A stretch of DNA of 64,000 nucleotides from a virus (lineage: Duplodnaviria; Caudoviricetes): positions 1,499 through 65,498 of the IMG/VR virus record IMGVR_UViG_3300036861_001161; one strand, written 5' to 3'. Below the pieces are notes generated by a model, which ran no database searches, had not been told where the DNA came from, and worked only from the letters and a program-made list of their open reading frames with translations. Every line of letters begins with the position of its first letter. Position 1 is the stretch's first letter. Positions 983 to 48,120 of the stretch are shown here, piece after piece. The translations under genes were made by a program, and so were the position numbers.

Positions 983-1117
983 CACGCACCGCCGTAACAC
1001 GAGCGTTTTGCAGCGGTGAAAGCGCGTAACGAAGATCATATTTTTTGCAGCCCCCTTTGTGCTATAGTGTTCCCCTCTCTTTCCCTGAGAACTTCCGTTT
1101 CCCTGAAGGAGTGTCGG

Positions 1118-2132: not shown

Positions 2133-2864
2133 TTACCTCCGATAGGCTACAGATGCTTCCCGGCTGAAGAAACTCAGTTGCCGTGTTGCTTGCTCATAAG
2201 CAGCGGCAATGGTATAGGGACTGTAGTAGGGGCAGAGGTAGTCATAGTTCTCAGGGCGGAACATATCGGGGTCTTCCATGTCACGGCAGGTCGCCCGAAG
2301 ATGGGCGAGGACCGGCTTGGGCAGAAATGGCTTACTGTGGCGTCGTAACCAGTCTTCAATACGAAACTTATCCGCTGGCGGTTGACGTTCAACCAACGCA
2401 GCAATTTGGAGGGCCTGTTCCTCTTGTCGTGCCTCTATTGCGCTTGCCCGTTGCTCAAACTCCACGTTGATGTGAGCTTGGGCAAGAAACATTTCTGCGG
2501 TTGTAAGTGCTTTATGGGATGGTCGTTCAAGTACTTCTCGCTCACATTCGAGAAACCAGAGGCGTGCTTCTTTCCCCTTGGCAGTCTTTTCCACCATAGA
2601 GAGTTCTTTACACATCTCGAAGGAGAGATAATACTCAATTGGCGGGTTTGGGTTTGCGCTACTAGAATCGTAGTATCTTGTAAAATCAATACCTTGCACA
2701 AACCCATACTGGGCAATCCGCTTTGTAATCCAATCATTAAACCGCTGTTTCACTTCTAAAAAAGCATAGAGATCACGGGCATTGACGGTGTTCACGGTGT
2801 CGGTGCCTATTTGGCGCCGAGCAAATGGAATCAACATGGATGTGGTAGACTTGTGGGTAGTCAA
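2133..2864 (-). CDS. AntA/AntB-family antirepressor
   Basis: TVNARDLYAFLEVKQRFNDWITKRIAQYGF..G.DF...EYYLS..M.KELSMVE....GK.AR.WFLECE. Own promoter (TGGTACAAT) near 2936-2944. Confidence 0.85.
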   Translation of the reverse strand: MTTHKSTTSMLIPFARRQIGTDTVNTVNARDLYAFLEVKQRFNDWITKRIAQYGFVQGIDFTRYYDSSSANPNPPIEYYLSFEMCKELSMVEKTAKGKEARLWFLECEREVLERPSHKALTTAEMFLAQAHINVEFEQRASAIEARQEEQALQIAALVERQPPADKFRIEDWLRRHSKPFLPKPVLAHLRATCRDMEDPDMFRPENYDYLCPYYSPYTIAAAYEQATRQLSFFSREASVAYRR

Positions 2865-2992
2865 GACAGTTTCCTTCCTAGAGGACTGTTTTGGTCAGCG
2901 GTGTTGAGGTGTTTGCGCATCTCGACACCGCGCTCATTGTACCATACATCGTGCCGACAATCCCTCCGCATACCAGCGAACTCGCTCTTTCT

Positions 2993-3214
2993 TTACCACT
3001 TCTGCTCTAGACAAGTCGCGAGATCCACCCCGCCAGTCGCCGTGATTCCGCGAATGCTCACATACGGACCGATATTTCCCTGATAGGAAAGGCACGATTG
3101 CACATTGCGCTCGTTGAGCCTGCTCGCATACGTCGAGATTTTCTCACTGTCGGGCGACGTGACGCAGCCCGTCCAGAGCAGCGCCACGGCCGTGATCAGG
3201 ATCCAGTGCAGCAT
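2993..3214 (-). CDS. Small lipoprotein (possible o-spanin or exclusion lipoprotein)
   Basis: MLHWILITAVALLWTG-C lipobox. TAATG coupling to the upstream gene, in the lysis region. Confidence 0.55.
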   Translation of the reverse strand: MLHWILITAVALLWTGCVTSPDSEKISTYASRLNERNVQSCLSYQGNIGPYVSIRGITATGGVDLATCLEQKW

Positions 3215-3624
3215 TACGGCAGCACGGGCGCTGGAATCTCCACGACACACGGTTCGCTCCAGATACCTTTAGGGGCTCCAGCTTGCAACGGGCCGCCGGC
3301 ATGCTTGGGAGCCGGCAGCGCCCGCACATGGACCGTCAGCGCAGCAAAATCATCCAGGACAATCACGTCCGGGGGCGCCAGGAGAAAATCACTGTCGACG
3401 ATAATACTCCCATCCGCGAGAATCCCAATCATCTCGACCTGATAGGCGTTCGCATCAGCGATCAGGTCCCAGGCCACTATGACGTCCGTACCCACCACGG
3501 GACAGACCACATTCTCTGGGGCTGGGAGTTTCGCCTGGCCCGGTGGGACCAGCGGCGGGGCGGCAAAGGCCGTAGAGGCGAGCACGAGGGTAAGGGCGCA
3601 GAGGGTTGCAGCAAACGTCTTCAT
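3214..3624 (-). CDS. Secreted FN3-like protein
   Basis: Signal peptide ending AFA-A, then LPAPENV...VAWD....A.AYQVE...VHVRAL...G.WSEP, an FN3-like pattern. Confidence 0.65.
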   Translation of the reverse strand: MKTFAATLCALTLVLASTAFAAPPLVPPGQAKLPAPENVVCPVVGTDVIVAWDLIADANAYQVEMIGILADGSIIVDSDFLLAPPDVIVLDDFAALTVHVRALPAPKHAGGPLQAGAPKGIWSEPCVVEIPAPVLP

Positions 3625-3702
3625 CCAGAGATTCCTTTTTTATAAGTAAGTAACCAGATCCTGCCAAAGTATACCAACAAATCCTCCGAGGCACTCCTGG
3701 AG

Positions 3703-4125
3703 TCACAGCAGCAGCGGAGGCAACTGCGCTGGCGTCTCGCGAAACCGGATGAAGGCCATCGTGAGCTGGCGCGCCCCATCCTGGAGCGGGGCCAGATCCG
3801 CGATCACCGGAATCTCATGGCCATCGGCATGCCGGGCGAAGATTTCTATGCCCATGCGCCGGTGGATACGCGGTGTCCGTTCATAGGTCGTGCGGAGCAA
3901 GACATGTTTGGTCCGTAAGCGTTCAGGAACCAAAACTTCGACGGGCTCCCCCACGAGGCTGCCCCGGGCGTAGCCGGCGAGCGTCTCCAACACCAGATTG
4001 GTTGCCAGGATGCGTCCGAGCGCATCCACAATAACAATGCCATCCTGCATCACATCGATTATTTCTTGTATCAGGCCCGGACCGAAAGGTTCGGTGGGCT
4101 CCTGGAATGGCAGTTCCTCATTCAT
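3703..4125 (-). CDS. Stand-alone PAS-domain protein (FixL-like heme-PAS features)
   Basis: DGIVIVDALGRILATN..LE.L.GY....LVG.PVEVLVPERLRTKH...ARHADGHEIPV. Confidence 0.85.
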   Translation of the reverse strand: MNEELPFQEPTEPFGPGLIQEIIDVMQDGIVIVDALGRILATNLVLETLAGYARGSLVGEPVEVLVPERLRTKHVLLRTTYERTPRIHRRMGIEIFARHADGHEIPVIADLAPLQDGARQLTMAFIRFRETPAQLPPLLL

Positions 4126-4568
4126 TTCAGCGGCCCTCCTCTACTGCCGACCCAGAGCGCGAGGAAGGCCCCGGCGACCGCAAAGACGAGTCCGACCGCC
4201 AGATTGCCGAGAAACCGAAACCACCACTCCCGGCCCGATTTCTGACTGGTCTCCAGCAGAAGCAACCGTTGCTCTATCGGGCCGATCTTTTGCAGCGTCG
4301 GGATATTGAATGTCTCATGAGCTTCGAGGAGCGCGAGGCGTTGTTCCACCAGGAGGACCCGCGTGATGATCGGCAAGGTGCTGCCATTTCCCTCACGGAT
4401 TAATTGATTCAGCGCCGTGAGGATCTTGCGTAATTCCGTCAGATCATTTTGGAGATGGACGATCTCACGGAGCGTGCCTTGCAGATCACTCATGACCCGT
4501 TGCATATTGATGACCGTGGCGTTGACTTCCCGACTCAGACGGCCAAATTCACTGGCATCATCAGCCAT
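4122..4568 (-). CDS. Coiled-coil protein with C-terminal TM helix (holin/hemolysin-like)
   Basis: Heptad-rich N-terminus and a hydrophobic C-terminal segment, in the lysis region. Confidence 0.5.
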   Translation of the reverse strand: MADDASEFGRLSREVNATVINMQRVMSDLQGTLREIVHLQNDLTELRKILTALNQLIREGNGSTLPIITRVLLVEQRLALLEAHETFNIPTLQKIGPIEQRLLLLETSQKSGREWWFRFLGNLAVGLVFAVAGAFLALWVGSRGGPLK

Positions 4569-4576
4569 CGCACCCT

Positions 4577-4981
4577 CTATTTCTTCGACAGGGGCGAGGA
4601 GGGCCGCACAAGCGGACGTTGGGCATAGACCAGATCGTTCAGTCGGGCATTCAGGGTGTCCACTTTCTTTTCCAGGAGGCTCACATTGAGGACGTTCGTC
4701 AGTTGTTGCCCCTTCATGGATTCGAGCAGCACCGCGCGGTCTTCGAGTTTGCCGCGCAACGTCGCAATCTCCTCACGAAAGGCTTTGAGTTCGGTCATGA
4801 CGCCGGTGCGTCGGGCTTGCTCCGCACCGATGGTGTCAATTTTGCCGTCCAGCACAATCATGACAATCACGACCACGATGATAAACACGCAGCACATCAG
4901 CCAGAGCGCCACGAATGACCGGTCTCTGGGGGTGAAACTCGGTGAGGACGTGATCGGCTCTTGCTGAGAAGATTCGCTCAA
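4577..4981 (-). CDS. N-terminal TM plus coiled-coil protein (i-spanin-like)
   Basis: FVALWLMCCVFIIVVVIVMIVL TM segment followed by a coiled coil. Confidence 0.5.
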   Translation of the reverse strand: MSESSQQEPITSSPSFTPRDRSFVALWLMCCVFIIVVVIVMIVLDGKIDTIGAEQARRTGVMTELKAFREEIATLRGKLEDRAVLLESMKGQQLTNVLNVSLLEKKVDTLNARLNDLVYAQRPLVRPSSPLSKK

Positions 4982-5397
4982 GGAGCCGGCCTCCTGAATG
5001 TGGTCTTCCGCTTCAACGTCAGCGGCGCAGTCACCTCCCGTAGATTCGTCGCGGGGGGCGGCTTGGTCAATAGGATACGTTTACAGATCACGTTACTGAG
5101 ATCGCCCCGGCCTTGCCCATCGAGGCCCTTCGGCTGGACGCCCCAACATTCGGTTTCTCCCTGGAGCGCCGTGCGATCAATATAGGCCCTGATATTTGCC
5201 GCCAAGGGCATGCCTGGGAGATCGGTCAGCGGCGCGCACGTCATACTCCCTGCGGGGACCGTGCAGCGCAGGACATACCATCCCTCGATCGGGGCCACGC
5301 CATAATCCCACGCCATACTGAATGTGGCCGTCTGGGCATGCACCGGCATGATCCAACAACCCAGAAGCATGACCAGTCCGAGCATGAAGAATACCAT
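4978..5397 (-). CDS. Secreted FN3-like protein
   Basis: Signal peptide ending VHA-Q, then MAWDY....GWYVLRC...YID.T...G...CWGV......G..SNVIC. Confidence 0.65.
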   Translation of the reverse strand: MVFFMLGLVMLLGCWIMPVHAQTATFSMAWDYGVAPIEGWYVLRCTVPAGSMTCAPLTDLPGMPLAANIRAYIDRTALQGETECWGVQPKGLDGQGRGDLSNVICKRILLTKPPPATNLREVTAPLTLKRKTTFRRPAP

Positions 5398-5407
5398 AGC
5401 GACTCCT

Positions 5408-5731
5408 TCAGTGCAGACAGATACGATTAGAGGACTCTGAACGCGCTGGCTTATCCAGGACTATCACTTCAAAACACCGCACTTTTTGCTGAGGCACCCG
5501 CACCCGTGTCTGCCGCCGCTGGGGCCCGAGCTGCTGCACATCCCGCATAACACAGCTCGGGCCTTCCTGCTGGCAGCCGCGCAGCACAAACCCGGTATGG
5601 CTGGGAGGGGCCGCCGGCACATAGTCCCACGCGAGGAGGGCGGGCCGGGCCGTAGCCAGGGGGATGACACCGAGTAGATTCACCATCAGCAGGCCTGCCC
5701 ATCTGATGATCATTGGACTTATTGTGGACAT
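5408..5731 (-). CDS. Secreted FN3-like protein, paralogue of 4978-5397
   Basis: Signal peptide, then LAWDY......GFVLRGC...C...CFEV......SESSNRIC. Confidence 0.6.
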   Translation of the reverse strand: MSTISPMIIRWAGLLMVNLLGVIPLATARPALLAWDYVPAAPPSHTGFVLRGCQQEGPSCVMRDVQQLGPQRRQTRVRVPQQKVRCFEVIVLDKPARSESSNRICLH

Positions 5732-6030
5732 CCCTGCGCCTCAATATCGTCACTGACGATGGTCACGCCATATTCGGCGAACGCCCGCATGATGATGAGA
5801 TTTTTGATCGCGGGACAAATGTTGGGCCCGGTCAACGCGGTGCGCGCGCCACATTCCACCACCGCGCGCATATCCAGTGTCCAGGGTTTCAGAATTAATG
5901 GCGCACACACCTGTGTCCCGGACGGATTCGGCGTATGGATCGCGTCATTGTCGGCATAAAAGAGTGGGCCAACGATGACAAGCACTTTCAGGGTCAACGG
6001 GAGCAGAAGCATGTATGTGAGATTTTTCAT
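5719..6030 (-). CDS. Hypothetical membrane/secreted protein
   Basis: Hydrophobic N-terminus, tightly packed in the operon. Confidence 0.45.
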   Translation of the reverse strand: MKNLTYMLLLPLTLKVLVIVGPLFYADNDAIHTPNPSGTQVCAPLILKPWTLDMRAVVECGARTALTGPNICPAIKNLIIMRAFAEYGVTIVSDDIEAQGCPQ

Positions 6031-6040
6031 CGTATGTGTA

Positions 6041-6646
6041 TCATGGCTTAAAGATATCCACGCTCAAGGCTCGTAGCACTAAAGAGGCCCCGGCAATATT
6101 GCTCCCCCAATTGGACGTAAAGGTCCAAGCTAAACTTCCATTCGTGGCTAACGCCACGGGCTGTGGTGTGACATTATTGTCCCCATCAAAGCCCACCGCC
6201 GTGAGATAACTTAGTGGTCCGGAATAGGTATTGACGCTTGCCCCCGGTGCGGCAGCAATGATCGTCTGAAAACACAAGGTGGAACTCATGCCAGTGAGAT
6301 TCGTCGCGGGTGCACTCGCGGTGCCTGGGGCAACCAGCGTCGTGGTCCCTGCGGCCCCCGCCTTCAGTTTCATAAGGAGGGTCGGTGCCGTCGCGCCGGT
6401 CGTGACGCTGACCGTGGCGCAGGCCTGAAGTACACTATTCGCGGTGAGGAAATTGGCATCGATTGTGCAAACGAGTGAGTGAGCAAAATCGGTCCCAAAG
6501 GTAGCGGTGGCAACATTCGTGGTGCCTCCTGTCTGGGAGCATTTGTACCATCCCTGGCCCTTCGCGATCCATTCGCTCGGAGACGCTGCACGAGCACCCC
6601 ACGGGAAACATACCATACAGAGGAGCCCAAGAAACCAACGTCTCAT
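6041..6646 (-). CDS. Secreted protein, stand-alone copy of the C-terminal domain of 6643-9657
   Basis: Signal peptide MRRWFLGLLCMVCFPWGARA. SEW.AKG....C...GG.TN...GTDF.H.L.CT..AN aligns with the last ~180 aa of the upstream gene. ATGA overlap. Confidence 0.75.
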   Translation of the reverse strand: MRRWFLGLLCMVCFPWGARAASPSEWIAKGQGWYKCSQTGGTTNVATATFGTDFAHSLVCTIDANFLTANSVLQACATVSVTTGATAPTLLMKLKAGAAGTTTLVAPGTASAPATNLTGMSSTLCFQTIIAAAPGASVNTYSGPLSYLTAVGFDGDNNVTPQPVALATNGSLAWTFTSNWGSNIAGASLVLRALSVDIFKP

Positions 6647-9600
6647 GGCCGGAGGACCTCCATCGTCAGGGCTAAGGGCGTGAGGAGGTTTTGACCTGAA
6701 CCTGCCGCGACCCACGTACTGGCCAGCGTCCAGTTGGTTGCTGCATTCGTCGCCACATTCACCGGCTGCAACATCCCATTATTCTTGGTGCCACTCGCCA
6801 TCGTTCCGCTCAACGGGGTGAGTGAGGCGGAATAGGTGGGGACGCTCGCCCCAGGTGATCCAGCGATGGTGGTGAGCCAGCAGAGCCAGGACGTGCGATT
6901 CGTCAGGCCAGGCTCCGGCGTCGCACTGTTGGCGGGCGCCGCAAGGGTTATCCCCTCTGCCCGGAGCTTGAAGAAAAAGGCCTGGGGCGGCGTTTCAGTA
7001 GTCATCTGGGCGAGGACACAGGTTTTGAGCTGGGCACCATTCTGTAAGCTATTCGCGGGTAAGGTGCAGGCCAGGTTGTGAATGAAATCCGTCCCTGCCC
7101 CAACGGTGCTGGCGTTGGTATCCCCGCCCACCGTTGCACAGCGTAAGGGCGCTGTGCCACGGGCCGCCCATTCTGACGACACCGCCGGAGTCCCCAGAAT
7201 CCCGAAAAGGCTGCTCGTATCACTCGTCATACCGGTGGCGCTGGCCACAAGCGTATAGCTTGATGCCGCGGCCGTGAGCGCCAGATCACTAAAGGTTGCA
7301 ATCCCCCCAACGGCCGCCTGCGTGAGGGTCCCATTCAGAGTACTCCCCCCGGGATTGGCTCCCAGGGCTACGGTAATGGTCTGCGTCGTTGCAAAGAGAT
7401 TATTCGCTCCATCTTCGAACTGCACAGTGATGGGCGGCAGCGTTTGTCCCACCAGCACGGTTTGTGGCTGGGCGGTGAAGCGCAGATGGGTCGGTCCCAC
7501 GGTCTGCTGAAACACGGTACTAGTGGTGCTCGGAAGGCCCGACACGGTCGCCATAAGCGTATAGGTCCCTCCGGCATTAATCGACAGATCGTTGAACGTC
7601 GCGATACCGCCGACGGCCCCACGGCTCACTGTCCCTGCCAGGGTGCCCGTGCCCATCCCTGTCGTATAGAGGGCCCGGAGTTCTGCTGCCGCCGTATACG
7701 GCCCTGCATTGGCCGCGGTGAGTGCCCGAAGCCGCAGATAGTGCCCTTGCCGCTCAGAGAATGTGACCGTTTTCTCGGTAAAGTCATTCGGCCAGGTCCC
7801 TGTCGCCGCTGCCGTTCCCCACGTACTCCCATTCAGTGAGGTATATACCTCATACTGGCCAATATTGCCGTTGTCGCCACCAGCACTGGGTCGCGGCAGA
7901 TAGGTCATCCCGGTCAGCGCATAGTCAGCCCCAAGATTCACCTGAATTTCATGCGGGGGCGGCGGGGATGAAACAGAGAAATCGGTATGCCAAAACGTCG
8001 CGGGATTATTGTCGACAGCCCGAGGGCCATCATATCCCGTATTCTGGCTATCGACGAAGACGACCGACGTGCTCCCAAAGGGAACGATGGCGGTGGCCGG
8101 CGTGAGGGCGATCATGACGACGTTCGTGGCACTACTGATGAGATTCCCGCTACTATCCTGGAGCTGCACCTGGATAGCCGGCAGCGTCTGTCCCACGGGG
8201 GTGGTTTGGGGTTGCACACTGAAGACCAGCTGGGAGGGCGTGGGTCCGGCGGAGGGCAGGGTGCAGCCGTTGGCGTTGACGTTGAGCCGCACACGCACGT
8301 CAAAACACGAGTCCCCCGCGCTGTCATTGACGCCTGCGACAATAGCGCCGCAGGGAAACTGACTCGTCGTGGGATCCCAGAGCGGCTGACTGGTGAGGAC
8401 GCCGTCCTGGTAGCGATAGAGGATGTTGGCACCGATGTCAGCGCCGTTCTGTCCAGCCCCTTTGGCCGGACTGCCCGTGGGAATAAACACTTTGCACGTG
8501 CCAAGATTCGGGTCTGAAGTCAGTATGTTCGTATAATGCGAATCGGTCAGTGCAGGCGAGGCAGGCGTCCCGTTGCCAAAGATTATAATATGATCAAAAG
8601 ACCAATCAGACTGACCAGAGATTTCAAAGCCTATGGTCTTATTCATTATAAGAATATTTTTCCCATATATCGTCGCGGCTCCGTCGCCCGTATAGCCCGA
8701 TTCGACATCAGCCGCAAAACCCGTTCCCGTGCCATCAATAAATGTGCAATTGTCGCAATGTGTATTTTTATTGCCTCGGAAATAGCCGCCAATCTCGTAA
8801 TCGCCGATCGAGAGATGATTCGTCAATTGGGTATTCTGTGGCATACTATCCAGACTGTTGCCATAATCGATACGCACATTGAAGACGACACCCTTGGGAT
8901 TGTTGAGCGTAATATTCCCGTAATACTGATTCCCAATGGCACTGGTTTTCGCTTGCAGATCCATCCCGGTGTTCCAGTCTTCAAAAATGTTGTTTTCAAC
9001 GATAGTGGTATTACAGGGATAGCACGAAAAGCCGGTATCGCCTCGGAAGGGATCGGCAGAATCCCCAGGGTAATCTCGTGAATGAAAATAATTGCGGCGC
9101 AGCGTATTGCCCGTGGGGGAGTACCCAGGCGAGCCTGAAAACAACATAATCCCATGACGATGGGCAAAGTAGCCTTCATTTTCTTCCAGCAACGAATAAT
9201 CAACATCCGTGAGAGACAGGAGATGGACATTCTGGTTCCTATTCGTGTAGGCAAGCAGTAATCGGCGAAAGGTGAGATGGCTTCCACCGGTGACTTCAAC
9301 GACCGATTGCCATGAACTCCCGCCACCTGCATAATCAGCGCTCGTCGCATAGAGCCCCTGAAATACCCAGTAGGAGCAACCATAGATGACTAAGGCGCCT
9401 TGAGAGCCGTCACTTTGCAGATGCGCTTGCCGCTCATTCTGCGCACGAATGGTAATCGGCTGGGTGCTGGTGCCGTTGTTCGGGGCGCCATTACAATCAA
9501 TCAAGATCGGCGCATAGGTACCATTAGTCAGGGTGAGCGTATCTCCGGGGATGAGCTGATTGATGGATGCCGTCATGTTATCCCCCGGTCCAATGGTCAG

Positions 9601-9657
9601 GGAGACGGCGTGGCTCAGGCTGGGGAGGAGGAGCCAGAGGAGCAACAGGAGCATCAT
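6643..9657 (-). CDS. Secreted multidomain glycan-binding/depolymerase-like protein: parallel beta-helix, Ig-like, F5/8 (CBM32) and C-terminal domains
   Basis: Signal peptide ending SHA-V. PGDTLTL.NGTY...PITIRA beta-helix start, AVDNNPATFWHT...PHEIQV.LG....TGMTYLPR discoidin motif, and two QLVF.VQP...GG.ATF.DL Ig-like units. Confidence 0.8.
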   Translation of the reverse strand: MMLLLLLWLLLPSLSHAVSLTIGPGDNMTASINQLIPGDTLTLTNGTYAPILIDCNGAPNNGTSTQPITIRAQNERQAHLQSDGSQGALVIYGCSYWVFQGLYATSADYAGGGSSWQSVVEVTGGSHLTFRRLLLAYTNRNQNVHLLSLTDVDYSLLEENEGYFAHRHGIMLFSGSPGYSPTGNTLRRNYFHSRDYPGDSADPFRGDTGFSCYPCNTTIVENNIFEDWNTGMDLQAKTSAIGNQYYGNITLNNPKGVVFNVRIDYGNSLDSMPQNTQLTNHLSIGDYEIGGYFRGNKNTHCDNCTFIDGTGTGFAADVESGYTGDGAATIYGKNILIMNKTIGFEISGQSDWSFDHIIIFGNGTPASPALTDSHYTNILTSDPNLGTCKVFIPTGSPAKGAGQNGADIGANILYRYQDGVLTSQPLWDPTTSQFPCGAIVAGVNDSAGDSCFDVRVRLNVNANGCTLPSAGPTPSQLVFSVQPQTTPVGQTLPAIQVQLQDSSGNLISSATNVVMIALTPATAIVPFGSTSVVFVDSQNTGYDGPRAVDNNPATFWHTDFSVSSPPPPHEIQVNLGADYALTGMTYLPRPSAGGDNGNIGQYEVYTSLNGSTWGTAAATGTWPNDFTEKTVTFSERQGHYLRLRALTAANAGPYTAAAELRALYTTGMGTGTLAGTVSRGAVGGIATFNDLSINAGGTYTLMATVSGLPSTTSTVFQQTVGPTHLRFTAQPQTVLVGQTLPPITVQFEDGANNLFATTQTITVALGANPGGSTLNGTLTQAAVGGIATFSDLALTAAASSYTLVASATGMTSDTSSLFGILGTPAVSSEWAARGTAPLRCATVGGDTNASTVGAGTDFIHNLACTLPANSLQNGAQLKTCVLAQMTTETPPQAFFFKLRAEGITLAAPANSATPEPGLTNRTSWLCWLTTIAGSPGASVPTYSASLTPLSGTMASGTKNNGMLQPVNVATNAATNWTLASTWVAAGSGQNLLTPLALTMEVLRP

Positions 9658-11921
9658 GGCAGCACCACCGCTTGCGATCCTGTGTTCATCAGCGTTGTAA
9701 GCTGTAACTTAGGATAGCCTGTTGAGATCGAGTTCAGGGACGAATTAACATTCACTTGAATATCTCCAGCGGTAGTTACCGTAAACGTGACAACAAGCGT
9801 CGCCGTCGCCAAGGAGGAATCTTTGATATTTCCTACCTGGGAACACCGGGCGGTCTCGGTCGCAATTACCGACGCTTTGTTGATGGCATGACAGACCACC
9901 CATCCTTCTTCGAGCTGGACATCGGTGCCATTAAATACATGTGCCCCATAGGCGAGCATGATACTCGCCCCGGTATTGCTCGCCACCGTCAAATTTGCCA
10001 CCGTTGTGGTCACGTTATTGGCCAGGGTCTTGTAGCCCCCAAGAATCATTTTATCGACATGCACATTATCACTCGTCCCAGTACTACCTGCGGTGGTCGT
10101 GCCCTGGAAGCGCAGTACGCCCCGCCCCGTCCCTGTGGAGAGCCCCGTCTGGAAGATGATCCCGCCCGCATCTTTATTCGTGGACCCACTTGTCGCTGAG
10201 CCGCCAGGGGCCGTCCAGGGCTGCCCGGCCGTATTGCTCGTGGTATTCCGTTCCATACCCACAGTGCGGGGCGCGGCACCTCCGAAGAGCACGCCACCGG
10301 TACTGACGGTCTGCAGCCGGAGATTCCCACTCCCCTTGGCATTCAGATCGACACCTACGTCAGCAGCGCTCCCGATCGCCGTCAGCACCGTCGGATTCCC
10401 GGTCGCCTGCCCCGTGACATCAAGTCCAGTATCGACACTCCCAGCGCTATAGTTGACACGAAAGGCCGGGTTGGTCACCCCATTAAAGCCTATGGTAAAC
10501 GCACTGCTGGTCACCCGGCCCCGCTCCAGATTATTGGTCCGTAGGAACACCGGGACATCGTTGAAGGCCCGCAGGTCGACCCCGTCGGCCCCGACGCTCA
10601 GGAGCGAGATATACCGGGAGCCTGCGCCATCGCCGCCCTGATAGCTCAAGGACCCTTTCGCCGTACTATTGTTATCGTACAGTGTATGACTGAGCGTCTG
10701 GTTGGTCGCACTGCCCGCTTGCCGGATTTCCGCACTTGGTCCCAGGAGATGCAGGAGCGTATTTGCGGTCACCCCGAGACCGAGACGGCCGTTGCTGTCC
10801 ACATTCCAGACCCCCGCCACTACCGGGGCGATGAGGGTCGGGGACGTCTGCTTGACGTAGTTTCCCGTACCAGTCGTGGCCACGCCTTGAAGCGTGGTCT
10901 GGCTGGCGAACTCTGCGGTCTGTCCGGCCACAGGTGTCCCGGTATTGGAGAGATTCCCCCCGCCTGCCGGCGTACACCAGGTCCCATTTCCGCACCATAC
11001 CGTGGAAGCACTGGCGTTCGTGCCGTTGTTGAGGCGGCTGATGGCCAGATTCCCCGTGACATCTGTGCCGAGATCCCAGAGGCTTCTTCGGATGGCCACA
11101 TGCCAGTTTGGGGTCGTGCGACTCGCGAGCGTAATTTCCAGTTCATCATTGAGCAGGGAGACTGCTCTGGTGGCATCTACGGTCGCATTCAGCCGCTCAC
11201 CAGTGGCCGGTTGCACGACGCATTGCCCCGTGCCCGCATCGACTTTGATCACGCGGTAGGTGCCAACCGTGCTTGCTGCGGCGCCGGGGAGCGTGAGCGA
11301 GACGGTGCTAGCCCCACTTGTACACGCTACCACGTTATGGGCGCCCAGCGTCGTATTACTGGCCAGCGCACTGACATTGGGATTGGCCGACAGAATCGCC
11401 GTGGCATTGATGGTCAGAGCCGTCGAGGGTGCCACCGTCGTTCCAGCTGCCAGGTAGGCCGCCAGGGCCGCGGTAGTACCACTACTCACAACCCCGCTCC
11501 CGCTGCCGCCTCCCGCGCTGCCGAGCGATTGGGCCTGCATGTTTGTGCCGTCATAGCAGGCTTCCAGCAATTGCCCGATGCCGAGGTCATTGGCGGCCAA
11601 GTCCGTTTGCACGCCGGCCATGGCTTTCTTGATAGCCTTCGCGCCGAGTCCATTCACGTTAAGCGTCGCCGCTCCGGTATTGGCGGAGGCCGCTTTGATC
11701 AGGAAGCAGGTGCCGGGGCGGTACGTCGTGATCGAGGGATTGAGGGTGCAGGTGAGGGTATTCGCCGTGCCCCCGGCGAGACAATAATTGAAAGCCCCGG
11801 CGATCGTGCGATTCCCGTTGATCAGCTGACCCTGGGCATGCACCGAGAGTGCCGTGAGGAGGAGGAGCATGAAACTCCAGCCACTACATCGTCTCCCTCG
11901 GCGCAGTTGACGTCTCGTCAT
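9654..11921 (-). CDS. Tail-fibre-like protein with Sec signal peptide (QLING family, paralogue 2)
   Basis: ...LLLLTALSVHA-QGQLINGNRTIAG, a fibre-type NTGAATLNVNGLGAKAIKK domain, and G/T/S/A-rich shaft. Confidence 0.75.
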   Translation of the reverse strand: MTRRQLRRGRRCSGWSFMLLLLTALSVHAQGQLINGNRTIAGAFNYCLAGGTANTLTCTLNPSITTYRPGTCFLIKAASANTGAATLNVNGLGAKAIKKAMAGVQTDLAANDLGIGQLLEACYDGTNMQAQSLGSAGGGSGSGVVSSGTTAALAAYLAAGTTVAPSTALTINATAILSANPNVSALASNTTLGAHNVVACTSGASTVSLTLPGAAASTVGTYRVIKVDAGTGQCVVQPATGERLNATVDATRAVSLLNDELEITLASRTTPNWHVAIRRSLWDLGTDVTGNLAISRLNNGTNASASTVWCGNGTWCTPAGGGNLSNTGTPVAGQTAEFASQTTLQGVATTGTGNYVKQTSPTLIAPVVAGVWNVDSNGRLGLGVTANTLLHLLGPSAEIRQAGSATNQTLSHTLYDNNSTAKGSLSYQGGDGAGSRYISLLSVGADGVDLRAFNDVPVFLRTNNLERGRVTSSAFTIGFNGVTNPAFRVNYSAGSVDTGLDVTGQATGNPTVLTAIGSAADVGVDLNAKGSGNLRLQTVSTGGVLFGGAAPRTVGMERNTTSNTAGQPWTAPGGSATSGSTNKDAGGIIFQTGLSTGTGRGVLRFQGTTTAGSTGTSDNVHVDKMILGGYKTLANNVTTTVANLTVASNTGASIMLAYGAHVFNGTDVQLEEGWVVCHAINKASVIATETARCSQVGNIKDSSLATATLVVTFTVTTAGDIQVNVNSSLNSISTGYPKLQLTTLMNTGSQAVVLP

Positions 11922-12451
11922 GGCCTTACGAGCCTCCGCAGGGCAAAGAGACACCGGGCCACCTTTTTCTGGACTGTCGTCAATTCATCATTGATCCCAT
12001 GCAGGGCAGCTTTAAAGGTCGTCAGATTGAGCGTCCCGATCCCATCAATTTGCGTTGCCAGCGCATCGTGGCGTGTGTCCAGCGCTGTCCCAACGGCCGC
12101 CAAATTGGCCACACTGCATACCTCGCTCGCCGCTAATTCATCCAGATAGGCCTGCACAGCGGCAGCCGCAGCAGCGAGCGCCGCATCGACCGCGTCTTTT
12201 TCTCCCTGCGTCATTTCCGTTGCCAATCCCGCCACGACTTTGAGGTAGCGACGTGCCACCGTCTGGAGGAGGGTCCGCTGAGCCGGCGTGTCGCCTTCGG
12301 GAATGACACTACACGTGCCATCCGTCACGGTGGTCGGGTCAACGGAGGGAAGATACCGCGTCAAGCGGGTCGTATTTCCACAGACGACGTCATGACCCCA
12401 CGCAACCACAGGAAGCAGGACCAGGAGGAAAAGGACAAGCCCCAGACGCAT
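11918..12451 (-). CDS. Secreted helical protein
   Basis: Signal peptide MRLGLVLFLLVLLPVVAWG. EMTQGEKDAVDAA segment resembles fibre-associated proteins. Confidence 0.6.
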   Translation of the reverse strand: MRLGLVLFLLVLLPVVAWGHDVVCGNTTRLTRYLPSVDPTTVTDGTCSVIPEGDTPAQRTLLQTVARRYLKVVAGLATEMTQGEKDAVDAALAAAAAAVQAYLDELAASEVCSVANLAAVGTALDTRHDALATQIDGIGTLNLTTFKAALHGINDELTTVQKKVARCLFALRRLVRP

Positions 12452-12453
12452 CG

Positions 12454-13215
12454 CTAATTCGCTCCCCAGGGAGAGGACAGGAGCTCACTGGCACGACAGG
12501 TGACCCCTGTGGTATTCGCTTCAGCCGCCATAAGCATCGTGTTTCCGGTCAGGGTCCCTGAGCGCTGCAGAAAGGCATACCCATCCGCCGAGGTCCCATC
12601 CGCACAGTCATCAAGCACCCAGTACATCGTGCCATTGTGGAGGTGGCCGTAGCGGAGCCGGCTCGACGCGAGCGCGAGAATGTCAGTGGCCGACAGCGCC
12701 GTGGGAAAGACACGGACATCCTCCAGCAGCCCATTAAAGGTCAGCCCACTGACGATATTGGTTTTACATAGGGTCATATCAAACGCGATATTACTCGTAT
12801 CACCACTCGCCGTACTCCCTGCAGACACACCGTTGACATAGAGTTCCAGTATGCCAGCCCCATGAACCAGGGCGAGATGGGTCCAGGTATCAACCGTATA
12901 CGTCCCGCCCACCTCAGCAGACGCCCCATCATTATTGACCGCCCAAAAGAGGTCCTGCCCGGCCACCGTGGCTCGGAAGAGGCCCACATTCCCCTCGTAC
13001 TCCCCGGCGAGGCCTTGTCCCAGAGACGCGCTGCCTACCGAGGGGGAGGAACCGGTGGGTTTCGCCCACAGGGTGATCGTGGCCGCCGACGCCGTCAGCG
13101 CATCACTGGTCGGCCCATCAAAACCATCGTCATCCACGCCGTCGCAGAGAATCGCCGCGTGAATCGACGTGGCGAGGAGCAAGAGACTGAGGAACACACC
13201 ACAGGTTCTTTTCAT
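12454..13215 (-). CDS. Secreted LamG/concanavalin-A-like lectin domain protein
   Basis: Signal peptide, then TITLWAKP...WTHLALV....LELYVNG...FNGLLEDVRVF..ALS..DI. Confidence 0.85.
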   Translation of the reverse strand: MKRTCGVFLSLLLLATSIHAAILCDGVDDDGFDGPTSDALTASAATITLWAKPTGSSPSVGSASLGQGLAGEYEGNVGLFRATVAGQDLFWAVNNDGASAEVGGTYTVDTWTHLALVHGAGILELYVNGVSAGSTASGDTSNIAFDMTLCKTNIVSGLTFNGLLEDVRVFPTALSATDILALASSRLRYGHLHNGTMYWVLDDCADGTSADGYAFLQRSGTLTGNTMLMAAEANTTGVTCRASELLSSPWGAN

Positions 13216-13229
13216 AACATTTTATCCTG

Positions 13230-15560
13230 TTACTGCTTGGTAAACTCTAGCATAACTCCAACTATCTCAAGGTCCCCGGTGGACGTATCAGCACTATCCG
13301 CCGGTGCCCGGCAGAGCTTGATTTTGGTCAAATCTCCTGCTGACATCGAGTCATTATTCGTGAGCGGACACACAATCTGGCCCAGGAAACCTACGGTCCC
13401 TGGTACGGCGGCATCGTCACAATTATTCACCGTCGCGTAGGAATCGGTGTTGATATCCGCGCTATCGCCTGGGGTGACTGCCATGACGGAGATGTCCACC
13501 GATACGCCGCCAGACGACGCACTGAGCATCGAATAAAGGACGCGCACCTGTGGACTCGTGCCATAGTCGGGGGGCATGACGAATTGCCACCAGACACATT
13601 CCTGAGTCGTGTCATCAAAGAGAATCCGCGTATTGTTCTCGCTATTGTCGATGACGCCGGGGTTGGTCGTAGGGAGCTTGGCAGCCCCGACCGGGAGTTG
13701 CACATACGCCTTGGCGATGGTGGCGATGACGACTTCGTTGCTAAGGGTTGCATTGCTAGTCGTGGTGACATAGGTGGCGCTCAGTGGGGCTACGGCGAGC
13801 ATGGTTTGCGCGGTCGCAATACTCAGGGCTTCCGGCACGCCGGTGCCTGCCGTGTTGCGCCCGAGGAAGGTGGCGGTGGCCAGATTCGCCATCTTCGCCA
13901 GTGTGACCGTGGCCGCCGGAATCGTGGTCGCGAGACTACCGGCCGTGGTCGTCACATCACCCGTCAGCGCAGGGAAGTTCGCCGCGGGAAGGGCCGTGAG
14001 CCCTTGGATGGTCGTGGAACCCGTCCAGAGGGCCAGCTGGCCACTGGTCGGCGTGCCACTGTTACTGACGTTGCCCCCACCTGACGGCGTGGCCTGCGTA
14101 CCGTCAGAACGATAAAACGTTGTGGTGGAGCCCGTGCCTTTGGGCATAAATCCATGCGCAGAGGTGGAGGCATTATTCGTCGTAACGTCCGTGAGCGCCA
14201 AGGCCGCTTCCGCGAGCGTCCCACCTCCGGCGGCATTTGTATGCGTATGCCCCGCATTCACAAAGCTGGCAATTGCCGGCGTGGTAAGGTCTGGGGAGAC
14301 TTGCCGTACTAAGGCGCCGGTCCCCGTTGTACCGCCGAGCATCGTCAAAGCGGTTGTCGGAGTGAGGGCTTCCGGGTCGCCCGTCCCTCCCGTATTGCGT
14401 CCTAAGAACGTCGGGCTCGTGAGATCGGCCATCTTGGCCAGAGTCACGGCATTATTGGCAATCGTCGCGGCAAGACTACCGGCAGAGGTGGTAACATCTC
14501 CGATGATCGCTGGGAAATTCGTCGCTGGGAGGGTCGTGACGCCCTGAATCGTCGTCGCGCTTGTCCAGAGGGCCAGCTGACCACTCGTCGGGGTGGGAAC
14601 ATTCGAAACATTCCCTCCGCCAGTAGGTGTACACCAGGTCCCGTTGCCGCACCATACGGTGGAGGCTGACGCATTCGTGCCACTGTTGAGGCGACTCACC
14701 GGAAGATTGCCCGTGACATCCGTCCCCAGATCGACGAGCAGCCGCCGCCGCGCGGCATGCCAGTTCGGCGTTCCCGTATTGAGGAGGGTGATCTCAAGCT
14801 CATCATTGACGAGCACGGCCGCCAGCGTCCCATTGATCGTGCCGTTGAGCCGTTCCCCCGTCGCGGGCTGCGCCACGCATTGGCCGGCCCCGGTATCCAC
14901 TTTGACGACTCGGTAGAGACCAGCGGTCGTAGTGGCCGCTGGGGGTAACGTCAACGTTTTGTCTGTGGCCCCCGCCGTGCAGGGAATGACGTAATGTGCG
15001 CTGAGGCTCGTATTGCCGGACACGGGAGTAAATTGCGGCTTGATGGTGAGGACATCGGTCGCGTTGACGGTGAGGGCCGTGGTTGGACTCACGGTCGTCC
15101 CAGCACTGAGGTAGGCGGCAAGCGTAGCGGCTCCTCCACTCGCTACCGTGCCACTGCCACTTCCCGAGCCACCACCGAGGGACTGGGCCTGCATGTTGAC
15201 GCCGTCATAACACGCCTCCAGCAACTGGTCGATGCCCAGGTCATTGGCGGCAAGGTTCGTCTGGATGCCCAGGACCGCTTTCTTCAGGGTTGTGGCGCCG
15301 AGACCATTGACGTTCAGCGTGGCAGAGGCCGTATTAGTGGCGGTGACATGGACGAGGAAGCAGGTACCGGGCCGATATTGGGTAATGGCTGGATTCAATG
15401 TGCAGGTGAGAGCGTTCGCCGTACCCCCGGCGGTACAAAAATTAAACGCCCCGGCGATCGTCCGGTTCCCATTGATGAGTTGCCCTTGTCCATAGGCCAA
15501 CGATGAGGCAAGGAGCCACAGAAACAGCGTTGTGTGCCACGGGGAGAGCCGCGCCTGCAT
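13230..15560 (-). CDS. Tail-fibre-like protein with Sec signal peptide (QLING family, paralogue 1)
   Basis: ...LLASSLAYG-QGQLINGNRTIAG, an internal duplicated shaft unit (GGGNVSN..TPTSGQLALWT...VTLAKMA.L...TFLGRNT.GTG.PEAL), and a C-terminal beta domain. Confidence 0.8.
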   Translation of the reverse strand: MQARLSPWHTTLFLWLLASSLAYGQGQLINGNRTIAGAFNFCTAGGTANALTCTLNPAITQYRPGTCFLVHVTATNTASATLNVNGLGATTLKKAVLGIQTNLAANDLGIDQLLEACYDGVNMQAQSLGGGSGSGSGTVASGGAATLAAYLSAGTTVSPTTALTVNATDVLTIKPQFTPVSGNTSLSAHYVIPCTAGATDKTLTLPPAATTTAGLYRVVKVDTGAGQCVAQPATGERLNGTINGTLAAVLVNDELEITLLNTGTPNWHAARRRLLVDLGTDVTGNLPVSRLNSGTNASASTVWCGNGTWCTPTGGGNVSNVPTPTSGQLALWTSATTIQGVTTLPATNFPAIIGDVTTSAGSLAATIANNAVTLAKMADLTSPTFLGRNTGGTGDPEALTPTTALTMLGGTTGTGALVRQVSPDLTTPAIASFVNAGHTHTNAAGGGTLAEAALALTDVTTNNASTSAHGFMPKGTGSTTTFYRSDGTQATPSGGGNVSNSGTPTSGQLALWTGSTTIQGLTALPAANFPALTGDVTTTAGSLATTIPAATVTLAKMANLATATFLGRNTAGTGVPEALSIATAQTMLAVAPLSATYVTTTSNATLSNEVVIATIAKAYVQLPVGAAKLPTTNPGVIDNSENNTRILFDDTTQECVWWQFVMPPDYGTSPQVRVLYSMLSASSGGVSVDISVMAVTPGDSADINTDSYATVNNCDDAAVPGTVGFLGQIVCPLTNNDSMSAGDLTKIKLCRAPADSADTSTGDLEIVGVMLEFTKQ

Positions 15561-15697
15561 GAGAGAATCTCATCATGAGATCGTGGAGTGCGCCGGCTCA
15601 TCACCCTACTACAGCAGCGGGTGGGGGATACCAGAAGATTGTAGAAAGCATAACAGAGAATACCCTAACATACGAGAAGCAAGAGACACGCCTATGA

Positions 15698-17206
15698 TCA
15701 AGGGCTACGCACCTGCAAGGCCTGGACCTGGGCTTTGAGCGTGCCAACTTCCCCTGCTAGTTCTTTCACGGCGTTCACGAGTGCATAGATCATCGCATGG
15801 CCGTTATAATCTAAGATATCTATGTCAGTCTCCTCAGGTGTGAGCTTTCCTTTATGACTTCCGATCATATACGGCGCGACCGGCTGCACGTCCTGGGCAA
15901 TCACCCCGACATATTCCTGTCGGTCAACGGGTATCCCCCCTTTGCCGTTGTAGCAAAACCATTGGGGCTGGATCTGCAGAATGAGAGCCAGGCCATCCTG
16001 ATAGGGTCGCAGGACCTCCTTCAAACGCCCATCCGAAAGCGTTGCCCAGGTACTGGTGGCGAGCTTACGCGCGAGATCAGTGGACAGATCGAGCTGATGC
16101 GTCGAGGGGGTAACGCCGAGGCCCACGCGTCCAGTGTTCGTATCAATATCCACCCGTGTGACGGCCCCGGTGCGCTCCTGAATAAGGACGTGGTGCCCTG
16201 AGCCTGGCTGAAGATAGAGATTCCCCGTGCCACTCCGCACCCGTACCGCCGTGCTATCGACGACACCCCCGTCCTGGATCGTAAAGTCATTACCCGTGAT
16301 CGCTGGCGCAGTGCACAGCACCAAGGTTCCTAATTGCGCCTGCCCGAACGTGACCACGACATCAAAGGTCGTGGGATGAACCGTCAACGATTCAGGAGCG
16401 AGGGCCGCCGCCAGCGGCGAGGTATTGTCATAGACCTGGAAGAGCAAGGCTTTGGTGGCGAGGTTGTGCGTCGTGCCGGGAATGTTGACGGTGGTCGTGC
16501 CGGGCAGGGTATGCACATACTGCGGGCCGGGCGAGGCAAGGATGATGGTCCCTGTTTGCGGCTGGCCGAACGTCAATCGCACGTCAAAATTGCCGGAATC
16601 GACCGTCAGGGATTCCGGCTCGATTGCGGCGGCGGGCGTTGCAGCGTCATAGATTTGGAAGAGGAGATTCTTCGTCCCCAGCTGGTGGACGGCGCCTGGA
16701 ATGTCGAAGAGAATGACGCCGGTAAAGGTCGTGACATACAATGGCGGACTCGCATTGAGGACGACGATACCGCTCTGGGTCTGGCCAAAACTTGCCGCGA
16801 GGGTATAGGTAGCCTGATCAATCGTGACCAGTACCATTTCCGTCGAGAGCGCGGCGGCAGGAATCTGGGCATCGTAGACCTGAAACAGGACGGCAGGGGA
16901 ACCCAGATTGGATAAGGTGCCAGGGATACTTACGGCCGTGGTATTACTAAAGGAAATGACGCCTGCCGCCGTACTGCCGCCCGGGAGAAACTGTTGCAAG
17001 CGGGCCGCGACACTGCCATAGACGCCCTGGGGGTTCGCCCCTAACGCGGTCTCTATTTTGATAAGGGCATCAAGGATATCGTTCATCACTTCCATGTCAA
17101 TGCGCGAAGCGGAATCAGGTCCCGCGCCATCCGCATTGACAAACGTCTGGCGGGAATCGATGGCCAGTGAATAACTGGAATTATTGCCACTCCCGAGCTG
17201 CGACAC
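15698..17206 (-). CDS. Tail fibre/spike with C-terminal peptidase S74 intramolecular chaperone
   Basis: GTG start after AAGGAGG. W..LSDGRLKE....Y.DGL..I....P.WF.YNG...GVIAQDV..V.P...Y......LVNAVKEL is the S74 chaperone. Three THNLG-type repeats. Confidence 0.85.
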   Translation of the reverse strand: MSQLGSGNNSSYSLAIDSRQTFVNADGAGPDSASRIDMEVMNDILDALIKIETALGANPQGVYGSVAARLQQFLPGGSTAAGVISFSNTTAVSIPGTLSNLGSPAVLFQVYDAQIPAAALSTEMVLVTIDQATYTLAASFGQTQSGIVVLNASPPLYVTTFTGVILFDIPGAVHQLGTKNLLFQIYDAATPAAAIEPESLTVDSGNFDVRLTFGQPQTGTIILASPGPQYVHTLPGTTTVNIPGTTHNLATKALLFQVYDNTSPLAAALAPESLTVHPTTFDVVVTFGQAQLGTLVLCTAPAITGNDFTIQDGGVVDSTAVRVRSGTGNLYLQPGSGHHVLIQERTGAVTRVDIDTNTGRVGLGVTPSTHQLDLSTDLARKLATSTWATLSDGRLKEVLRPYQDGLALILQIQPQWFCYNGKGGIPVDRQEYVGVIAQDVQPVAPYMIGSHKGKLTPEETDIDILDYNGHAMIYALVNAVKELAGEVGTLKAQVQALQVRSP

Positions 17207-17207
17207 G

Positions 17208-17408
17208 TTAGCCTCCTTGCCCAGCGCCAGGCCGGGGGTGGGTCCTGAGATATTCGCGGATGGCGCGTCGCACATCCTGAGCATCCAGGCGCGGCAAGGT
17301 CAGGGCTTGCCGCAAAACGTTCAGTTGCTGAACGAGCAAGGTAAGCACCATCTGGGTCTCATAGGAGACGGTGGTATCAAGGGTGACGCGGTGATCCAGG
17401 CGTGGCAT
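17208..17408 (-). CDS. Small tail-fibre-associated protein
   Basis: GAAGGAG RBS, located between tail-tip and fibre genes. Confidence 0.5.
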   Translation of the reverse strand: MPRLDHRVTLDTTVSYETQMVLTLLVQQLNVLRQALTLPRLDAQDVRRAIREYLRTHPRPGAGQGG

Positions 17409-17409
17409 G

Positions 17410-28579: not shown

Positions 28580-28580
28580 C

Positions 28581-30755: not shown

Positions 30756-30986
30756 TGAGAGCCTCCTTATTCCCATCTATGGAAATAGGTTGAGGCTCTG
30801 TGCGCTACCGGAAGGCGTGCGAGGATACCTACGGATGACGGATGTGATCTATTTTTACTTCTTTTTCCTCTCTAAATCGGCTATAATCCTAGGCCTGGTG
30901 GCGACTGATCATCGCCCGTCATAAGCCCTCGGTGCTAACCCACTGAGGGGCCAGGTACCCGTCATTCCCTCGGTTAGGAGGAGCCT

Positions 30987-32709: not shown

Positions 32710-32722
32710 AGGCTTCCTTTCC

Positions 32723-46216: not shown

Positions 46217-46224
46217 AGAGTCTC

Positions 46225-48116: not shown

Positions 48117-48120
48117 GCGA

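Follow-up and report, generated by a model that had tools for sequence, protein, structure and literature searches.

Two gene cassettes encoding fibre-like, lectin-like and beta-helix proteins with predicted signal peptides in a tailed phage from soil metagenomes

Nine coupled genes follow the side tail fibre, with a second cassette after the tail terminator

Tail fibres and depolymerases are thought of as virion parts made in the cytoplasm. We analyzed 64,000 of the 65,498 bases (positions 1,499 to 65,498; hereafter the window) of a linear IMG/VR virus record (IMGVR_UViG_3300036861_001161, Caudoviricetes; CheckV completeness 66%), which has a siphovirus-type gene order with nearly all genes on the minus strand. 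Between its S74-type side tail fibre gene and a transmembrane (TM)- and lysis-like region, nine minus-strand genes (cassette A, A1 to A9) fill positions 4978-15560. A first-pass annotation made from the letters and open reading frames (ORFs) had described this stretch as a tightly coupled block of about 10.6 kb. The coupling stands, with intergenic gaps of -13 to +14 nt, ATGA start/stop overlaps at the A4, A5 and A6 starts directly ahead of the leader codons, and Shine-Dalgarno-like strings that are clear before six of the nine starts, weaker for A5 and absent for A1 and A7; the lower boundary does not, as the coupled run goes on below 4978, to 3214. From upstream to downstream, the features are:

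15698-17284 (-): S74-type side tail fibre (Peptidase_S74, 1e-8; 12 tail-fibre PHROGs), used as a leaderless internal control
15561-15697 (-): S74-A1 gap of 137 nt, holding the candidate -10 TGTTATGCT at 15655-15647
13230-15560 (-): A1, 776 aa; leader of about 24 aa, QGQLINGNR, 108-aa fibre domain (15165-15488)
12454-13215 (-): A2, 253 aa; leader and LamG/concanavalin-like lectin (Pfam PF13385, 8.7e-20)
11918-12451 (-): A3, 177 aa; leader and a protein of no known family, with only weak sub-threshold matches
9654-11921 (-): A4, 755 aa from the ATG at 11921; Arg-rich leader, QGQLINGNR fibre domain (11511-11834), C-terminal part of its own
6643-9657 (-): A5, 1004 aa; leader, right-handed beta-helix, CBM32/F5-8C domain (residues 538-660), C-terminal jelly-roll paralogous to A6
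6041-6646 (-): A6, 201 aa; leader and a free-standing copy of the A5 C-terminal domain (39% identity)
5719-6030 (-): A7, 103 aa; leader-like N-terminus (Lys in the hydrophobic core) and a small 4-Cys protein of no known family
5408-5731 (-): A8, 107 aa; leader and a small 4-Cys domain homologous to A9, the B5 C-terminus and an ORF of related contig L093
4978-5397 (-): A9, 139 aa; leader, FN3-like 4-Cys domain, basic tail

Most of the protein assignments in the first-pass annotation were borne out. The two fibre-like proteins with predicted mature ends QGQLINGNR are A1 and A4, which share the Cys-containing 108-aa domain, are 66% identical over residues 13-349 and are of trimer type; behind the domain, A1 continues with a Gly-rich linker, a shaft in common with A4, DUF5907-like repeats (2.1e-5, below cut-off) and a unique C-terminal domain. 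A4 starts in an ATGA overlap with the A3 stop, and the database entry P0066 is A4 called from a downstream start. The LamG lectin is A2, and the beta-helix/CBM32 protein is A5, for which Pfam returned F5/8 type C (3.5e-20), the Chondroitinase_B N-terminus (1.6e-8) and, below its cut-off, Beta_helix (2.4e-4). The best matches of the A5 CBM32 are galactose-binding domains, those of galactose oxidase and a Micromonospora sialidase (1.8e-25 to 2e-22), and in a tblastn search of 50,697 phage records A5 was matched in 2 records, within the CBM32 part only.

The small proteins were harder to place. FN3 proteins had been annotated here, yet Pfam at E<=10 returned nothing for A7, A8 or A9 (nor for the 136-aa protein at 3214-3624), whereas an AlphaFold model of A9 (mean predicted local distance difference test score, pLDDT, 74.2) hit FN3 domains throughout the 40 Foldseek rows listed, with a best E of 1.3e-3 (above the 0.001 line) and TM-scores of 0.5-0.63. 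When A8, A9, the B5 C-terminus and the L093 ORF are aligned, three Cys are invariant and the fourth is present in three of the four rows. A6 has two database homologues, both with leaders and with all 4 Cys invariant; its weak model (pLDDT 62.8; like that of A9, built from a four-row alignment) is all-beta and had no Foldseek match at E<=0.001, and we assigned no fold, the best rows being generic jelly-rolls (birnavirus VP2, the lambda gpJ tip and the furin P-domain) at E>=2e-3 and TM-scores of at most 0.44. NCBIfam had no match for 19 of 26 proteins; these include the whole of cassette A, save for one sub-threshold row for A2.

A second set of leader-bearing genes, similar in composition, lies just after the tail terminator:

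45914-50909 (-): cassette B, six leader-bearing genes, B1 to B6

B1 and B2 are fibre-like and carry QSQLING domains, so that the record holds four fibre N-domain copies in all; B3 has 219 aa, B4 combines Beta_helix (7.4e-15) with a choice-of-anchor Q domain (choice_anch_Q, 4.1e-13), B5 is Ig-like and FN3-like, and B6 is a small coiled-coil protein, with the start codons of B1, B2, B4 and B6 being uncertain. Both cassettes combine two fibres with one lectin-like and one beta-helix protein, and each adds small beta-sandwich proteins.

Predicted signal peptides and cysteine content set the cassettes apart

By eye, all nine cassette-A products begin with an n-h-c leader ending in a small-x-small site, such as LLASSLAYG/QGQLINGNR in A1, TALSVHA/QGQLINGNR in A4, LLATSIHA/AILC in A2 and LPSLSHA/VSLT in A5 (slashes mark predicted cleavage). 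Leader calls combine a home-made strict rule, by-eye reading and family conservation rather than SignalP; an earlier, looser rule over-called and was not used for counts. The strict rule accepts 7 of 9 cassette-A products, 6 of 6 from cassette B and 9 of 46 other genes (13/15 vs 9/46, Fisher p = 5e-6). It misses A1, whose hydrophobic core is just under threshold, and A7, with its Lys in the core, both of which have visible leaders, and of the nine calls elsewhere at least three seem spurious, namely those from internal starts in MuF and J and that of g33733. The claim that nearly every gene of the block carries a signal peptide therefore held up under a home-made rule and with cleavage as predicted. 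The residue after the predicted cleavage site is Q, A, H, V, D or R and never Cys, leaving no lipobox.

The phage's own J and S74 fibres had been annotated as leaderless. S74 has no leader under either the strict or the permissive rule; J gives a weak leader-like match, under the permissive rule at its annotated start (acidic N-region, low core score) and under the strict rule only from an internal TTG, which we judge spurious, its N-terminus having no n-h-c leader.

Leader- or anchor-like N-termini also occur elsewhere in the window, at 54524-55069 (-), 28536-29012 (+), 32272-32757 (-), 3214-3624 (-) and 1016-1498 (+). One such leader, MPRKTILSLALLAVLLTSSYLVA followed at the predicted site by QEYY, is in the head module between a GIY-YIG gene and the head-tail adaptor, and another is encoded on the opposite strand, immediately upstream of the tape-measure gene and before the T-like chaperone gene, so that it stands between the two.

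Cysteine content follows the same division. Mature Cys counts from A1 to A9 are 12, 4, 4, 10, 14, 4, 4, 4 and 4, even in nine of nine, which would occur by chance about once in 512 if parity were random. Across both cassettes there are 87 Cys in 4752 residues (1.83%), compared with 24 in 7718 (0.31%) in 16 leaderless structural proteins, a difference of about six-fold. We also compared the two properties within the fibre-domain family, using the 109 proteins that cover the two Cys columns among the best 150 of 22,364 representatives plus two cultured-phage fibres: 42 have both the Cys pair and a leader, 61 have neither, 2 have a leader only and 4 have the pair only. Among these last four, one is A4 from its downstream start, two have visible sub-threshold leaders and one is truly leaderless. 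Predicted export with disulfide bonding, as the earlier annotation had proposed, is thus backed by the leaders, the even Cys counts and the family-wide coupling of pair and leader.

The leader-bearing fibres share a clade with metagenomic and cellular genes

The fibre N-domain family comprises 22,364 representative proteins at E<=1e-3. A profile of the four window copies matches PDB 9b45 chain 2 (Pa193 gp47) at E 3.3e-7, and tblastn matches to the RR1-A and phiOH2 fibres show 48-53% identity over 57-66 residues. In these leaderless fibres the domain is internal (residues ~66-122 in RR1-A, ~189-254 in phiOH2 and 243-324 in Pa193 gp47), and leaderless members in general start it from residue 7 onward, mostly at ~60-250, behind conserved N-termini; the term "fibre-anchor-type" used for it earlier is therefore not apt. 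In A1, A4, B1 and B2, by comparison, the domain starts at the predicted cleavage site (about residue 25-30), with a leader in place of the usual N-terminal segment. Only leader-bearing members match the profile from position 1, with its QxQLINGxR start. It is leader architecture, not leader sequence, that is conserved among homologues, and the close homologues of A1 all have leaders.

For viral copies we drew on 79 IMG/VR loci from a ten-row alignment search, 77 of which contain domain-bearing ORFs. The Cys pair is absent from all of these 80 ORFs, and no more than 2, one doubtful, carry a leader. In a FastTree phylogeny of 301 first-domain copies (~100 columns, with a weak midpoint root and with leader labels of locus ORFs that are approximate and over-call), the four window copies fall in a 15-tip, all-leader clade (support 0.98), nested in clades of 46 (0.83) and 50 tips (0.60), the latter at least 90% leader-bearing. 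The 50-tip clade includes 44 metagenome representatives, none of the 77 viral tips and 2 of the 70 genome tips. Both genome tips are from Acidobacteriota, namely Bryobacterales (L009) and Solibacteraceae (L013). The L009 gene lies in an exosortase-type exopolysaccharide (EPS) locus, with DUF3485/EpsI, UDP-glucose dehydrogenase, glycosyltransferases of families GT1 and GT4, DegT and a FemAB-like protein, and has three further leader-bearing proteins beside it; the L013 neighbours are non-phage as well. Given this clade membership with cellular genes, the window fibres appear to represent an exported lineage otherwise anchored in cellular genomes, and not an ordinary phage lineage. Leader-bearing versions of the domain are also found in Bacteroidota genomes. 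Homologues are not confined to host operons (such confinement was named in the first-pass annotation as counting against its reading), yet close ones do sit in ordinary Acidobacteriota EPS loci.

These observations bear on whether the exported fibres could be virion appendages matured outside the cytoplasm, folding and forming disulfides in the periplasm and docking through the shared N-terminal domain at lysis, which we regard as quite unlikely. The tail-fibre domain is genuine, four proteins combine it as a common N-terminal domain with unrelated C-termini in the modular pattern of receptor-binding proteins, the genes directly follow tail genes in the window and in three related contigs, codon usage looks long-resident, and the repeat-rich 1852-aa protein of the window could, speculatively, offer multiple docking sites. 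Set against this, the segment that precedes the domain in ordinary fibres is absent from A1, A4, B1 and B2, the phage already possesses leaderless fibres in J and S74, the genome-anchored members of the clade are non-phage and none of the 77 sampled viral copies joins it, the literature searched offered no precedent, and no candidate docking site emerged. The lectin, beta-helix and FN3 partners also bear leaders, as would be expected of secreted proteins more than of virion parts. In A5 and B4 a leader stands where tailspikes have an N-terminal particle-binding domain. Loading onto virions at lysis, one of the two options raised earlier, found no support, with the fibres lacking that preceding segment. 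In its specific form, in which the fibres would be exported, clipped to Q-G-Q-L-I-N-G and docked on finished particles only once lysis mixes periplasm and cytoplasm, we think it very unlikely; if true, it would add an extracytoplasmic step, and thus a new compartment, to tailed-phage assembly, and soil virions would carry oxidatively cross-linked, exchangeable receptor-binding fibres.

Assembly, relatives and codon usage place cassette A in phage DNA

That the block is phage-encoded, as first annotated, is supported on several sides. Cassette A has leaderless tail genes upstream and, past the coupled run on its downstream side, genes for an AntA-domain protein and an M15 peptidase, so that it is inside phage DNA and not in a host flank. 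Codon usage of cassette A equals that of the phage core (G+C content at third codon positions, GC3, 0.666 vs 0.655; relative synonymous codon usage, RSCU, r = 0.94). In Logan contigs of run X1, a soil metagenome, depth is even at ~30-35 over 2500-18500, and a single contig of 68,940 nt reaches from within A5 across the tail and head genes. When a 10,546-nt contig is added, the element is implied to be at least 79 kb long, extending ~13.5 kb further right and ~2 kb further left of the window.

It is extremely unlikely that the cassettes are an artefact, with host DNA mis-assembled onto a phage or leaders arising from wrong start codons. The record is a metagenomic contig, the X1 assembly breaks inside A5 where a minor variant contig also occurs, and the cassette-B starts named above are uncertain, all of which would fit such an origin. 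The even depth and the 68,940-nt contig speak against it, as do identical low-depth fragments in run X2 of a second study (also a soil metagenome), the recurrence of the same junctions in independent contigs, the leader architecture conserved in homologues and the ATGA overlaps at leader-encoding starts. The break itself is at 8538-8567, and the variant contig (8456-8567) has a depth of 7.7 vs ~30 and 11 differences in 112 nt, suggesting strain-level diversity in the beta-helix gene. One X1 contig also shows a joint from 3205 to 17679, which would skip 14,473 nt (S74, cassette A and its tail); we made no use of it, as its shorter side has only 28 letters, and it may reflect a repeat or another organism.

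Related contigs repeat the arrangement. An IMG/VR contig designated L006/L089, and also L095, shares gene order with the window from the tape measure through S74 (44-68% identity), and 4 nt past its S74 stop a gene reading MTVLRTLRVYSVSVFLLSLLMVASVSA followed at the predicted cleavage site by QGQLINGNR begins and runs off the contig. In L091, a tail terminator (74% identity) is followed after a 15-nt gap by a gene with a leader and QGQLINGSR. L093 keeps the cassette-B order, with B1-like, B2-like, leader-LamG, leader-beta-helix, leader-FN3-like and B6-like genes, L092 has the same parts shuffled, and L090 has an A4-like gene in another context (L094 was compared by BLAST only). Searching with S74 alone gave no relatives, and a two-row S74 alignment recovered only a contig known beforehand.

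The gaps of 4 and 15 nt in L006 and L091 point to co-transcription with the tail genes. The first-pass annotation had proposed a -10 element upstream of A1; the string is present at 15655-15647, but a consensus scan called no promoter in 15561-15697, and the corresponding gap in the relative is only 4 nt. Neither promoter nor terminator signals above chance flank the block, scan totals being 12 promoter-like strings vs 6.2 +/- 2.3 expected and 7 terminator-like strings vs 11.7 +/- 3.4 (against a sigma-70 consensus, which may not be the host's).

Such evidence weighs on a second alternative, that the cassettes form a lysogenic-conversion (moron-type) module through which a prophage gives its lysogen new surface fibres, lectins and matrix enzymes; this would alter adhesion or the biofilm matrix, or exclude other phages. 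We think this unlikely, if worth taking seriously. The site is at the end of the late operon, where the exported morons lom and bor of lambda sit, the nearest homologues anchored in genomes are cellular and belong to EPS loci, an AntA-type antirepressor domain is near, and the 137-nt gap ahead of A1 holds the -10-like string. Moreover, the first four cassette-B genes (46824-50800) differ from the core in composition, with GC3 of 0.45-0.55 vs 0.66 in the core and cassette A and an RSCU r of 0.65, which suggests a more recent or different origin for these genes. On the other side are the core-like codon usage of cassette A, the missing promoter and terminator signals, the short gaps in the two relatives, and the finding of no integrase or repressor among the scanned proteins of the 64-kb window; in addition, the best cultured relatives by major capsid protein (MCP) are Vibrio siphoviruses of about 76 kb, which we take to be virulent.

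The MCP (56667-57737, -) shares 45% identity across 97% of its length with that of ~75-79-kb Vibrio siphoviruses of the MAR10 group, a size that fits the element of at least 79 kb. It does not discriminate between hosts, since matches occur in 6 of 301 Acidobacteriota genomes, two of them at 50-51%, and in cultured phages of Vibrio and E. coli at 45%. The two genomes with 50-51% matches have no fibre domain, which occurs in only 4 of the 301 sampled. The locus in genome G084 has only portal, scaffold and MCP in common with the window, beside non-phage-looking ORFs, and looks like a prophage remnant. One close fibre homologue is on a 66-kb contig of a metagenome-assembled genome labelled Nitrospiraceae.

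A possible role outside the infected cell's cytoplasm

The reading we favour, with about as much belief as doubt, is that cassettes A and B encode proteins which are made late, leave through Sec, form disulfide bonds and as a set bind and cut glycans of the host envelope or matrix, rather than ordinary virion parts. With export signals on all products, these probably act outside the cytoplasm on host surface sugars. The cassette genes would be transcribed with the tail genes, late in infection; Sec would carry the products across the inner membrane, where the leader would be lost to leave a new N-terminus Q-G-Q-L-I-N-G and disulfides would form. The shared N-terminal domain may serve as a common trimerisation or docking unit, with the variable C-termini conferring different glycan specificities. 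The exported set could then bind and cut the infected host's own EPS, capsule or surface glycan. With the matrix loosened in this way, progeny could be released, and receptors carried by the dying cell and its debris could be destroyed or masked.

Several observations weigh against this proposal. Placement right after tail genes in three contigs would be equally expected of a virion component, as would a conserved N-terminus with variable C-termini. Cysteine parity does not extend to cassette B, where the count is even in 3 of 6 proteins and odd in the other 3, and several close A1 homologues (e.g., P0159, P0184 and P0207) have a leader but no Cys pair, from which it follows that the Cys pair implies a leader and not the reverse. 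There are no lipoboxes or sorting tails to mark a route across an outer membrane, if the host has one. The A5 Beta_helix match is below the Pfam cut-off, and the catalytic role of the beta-helix proteins is putative. Finally, BLAST found no similarity of the exported fibres' C-termini to J, S74 or the giant 1852-aa protein, leaving receptor masking through a shared binding domain unsupported.

Should the set act on the host matrix, phages of EPS-rich soil bacteria would be preparing their release and avoiding loss of progeny on debris, and phage fibres and cellular matrix proteins would be linked as one exchanging gene pool. What the window itself presents is a phage lineage that keeps export-built, fibre-derived proteins, lectins and glycanase-type enzymes inside its tail operon. 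Whichever reading is true, the coupling of Cys pair and leader provides a simple sequence rule separating exported from virion-bound members in a family of more than 22,000 representatives.

Other genes of the window

Beyond the cassettes, the principal features are as follows:

Head module: portal (DUF4055), Mu-F-like protein, scaffold and MCP
51524-51940: tail terminator, forming the connector with a DnaT_2-type adaptor; ~20 kb of extra genes then precede the tail module
30351-30776: tail tube protein, with G/T-like chaperones next
25287-28214: tape measure, then M/L/K-like proteins
J protein: 1706 aa (phrog_31, 6e-116), then a 325-aa protein
3214-4981 (-): coupled run of four genes past cassette A
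4577-4981 (-): 134-aa coiled-coil protein with an N-terminal TM segment
4122-4568 (-): 148-aa coiled-coil protein with a C-terminal TM segment
3703-4125 (-): 140-aa PAS protein (PAS 2.3e-7; TIGR00229 7.3e-13)
3214-3624 (-): 136-aa leader-bearing protein, with a homologue beside exported fibres in L092
30987-31778 (+), 58625-59530 (+), 55226-56323 (-), 43688-44848 (-), 50812-51537 (+) and 41644-42387 (-): homing-endonuclease-type genes

The stand-alone PAS gene is ATGA-coupled to the preceding gene and is unusual cargo for a phage late region. Homing-endonuclease-type genes are dense in the structural region (two HNH, one GIY-YIG with NUMOD3, one with multiple helix-turn-helix motifs and two Cys-rich ORFs), and the one at 50812-51537 (+) stands between the tail terminator and B1, being missing at the same junction in L091.

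The 1852-aa protein (34770-40328, -) resembles the Ig-like repeats of the S74 fibre in three blocks (39-43% identity). The motif ASS[LV]R occurs in it 17 times exactly and 30 times under a looser pattern, with many copies 18 residues or multiples thereof apart; it contains no Cys, matches no Pfam family and may decorate the virion as a repeat-rich protein. A second tail-tube-like protein (32884-33564, -) resembles the 141-aa tube protein over its own residues 106-221 (38% identity) and carries an additional domain at its N-terminus, and two adjacent paralogues of ~120 aa (40530-40895 and 41269-41628, -), 48% identical, are of no known family.

Comparison with known systems

The first-pass annotation knew of no named system like cassette A, and our comparisons agree with it: in the literature searched, with subscription journals outside its scope and hence not as proof of absence, we found no description of Sec-type leaders on tail fibres and no named equivalent, and PADLOC models matched none of 19 cassette and neighbouring proteins at E<=0.001. 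The nearest relatives by domain are the ordinary fibres Pa193 gp47 (PDB 9b45; PMC11042391) and those of Rhizobium phage RR1-A and the Thermus/Geobacillus phage phiOH2, which have the ~100-aa domain in common with the window fibres. In these the domain is internal, behind an N-terminal attachment segment, with neither Cys pair nor leader, whereas in the window fibres it stands at the cleavage site with the extra QGQLINGNR. The Acidobacteriota genes L009 and L013 are closer in architecture, with a leader and the Cys-pair domain as in the window (L009 being 46% identical, including the leader region), but they are chromosomal with no phage genes near, unlike the window copies in their phage operon. 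Their partners are glycosyltransferases, a metallophosphoesterase-like protein and ~1140-aa proteins of no known family, without the set of LamG, CBM32, beta-helix and FN3 proteins.

Among phage systems, lambda lom and bor are exported morons at the tail-fibre end of the late operon that encode signal-peptide-bearing envelope proteins, and cassette A resembles them in having leader-bearing phage proteins encoded beside tail-fibre genes. The lambda morons are single genes with their own promoters, lysogen-expressed and not fibre-related, whereas the cassettes comprise nine and six coupled, partly fibre-derived genes with no signal of a promoter of their own. Pneumococcal PblB, a phage tail-fibre-like protein, is reported to mediate galactose-specific adhesion (PMC4508584). 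The likeness of this protein and of prophage SM1 PblA/PblB (Streptococcus mitis) to the cassettes lies in tail-fibre-like proteins acting at a bacterial surface, in their case as adhesins of Gram-positive hosts. PblA and PblB are not known to have signal peptides, reach the surface after phage lysis and are also virion proteins.

Signal-peptide and signal-anchor-release (SAR) endolysins are late phage proteins exported by host Sec before lysis. They are single peptidoglycan hydrolases, in contrast to the fibre, lectin and glycanase-type sets of the cassettes. There is a likeness in possible working to the Vibrio matrix cluster, in which the FN3 protein RbmA, the beta-helix polysaccharide lyase RbmB and the lectins RbmC/Bap1 form a secreted set acting on the bacterium's own exopolysaccharide. 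This cluster is chromosomal and not fibre-based, and we liken it to the cassettes by possible function and not by homology. A common ancestry of RbmB and prophage pectin-lyase-like tail proteins has been inferred (PMC11451748).

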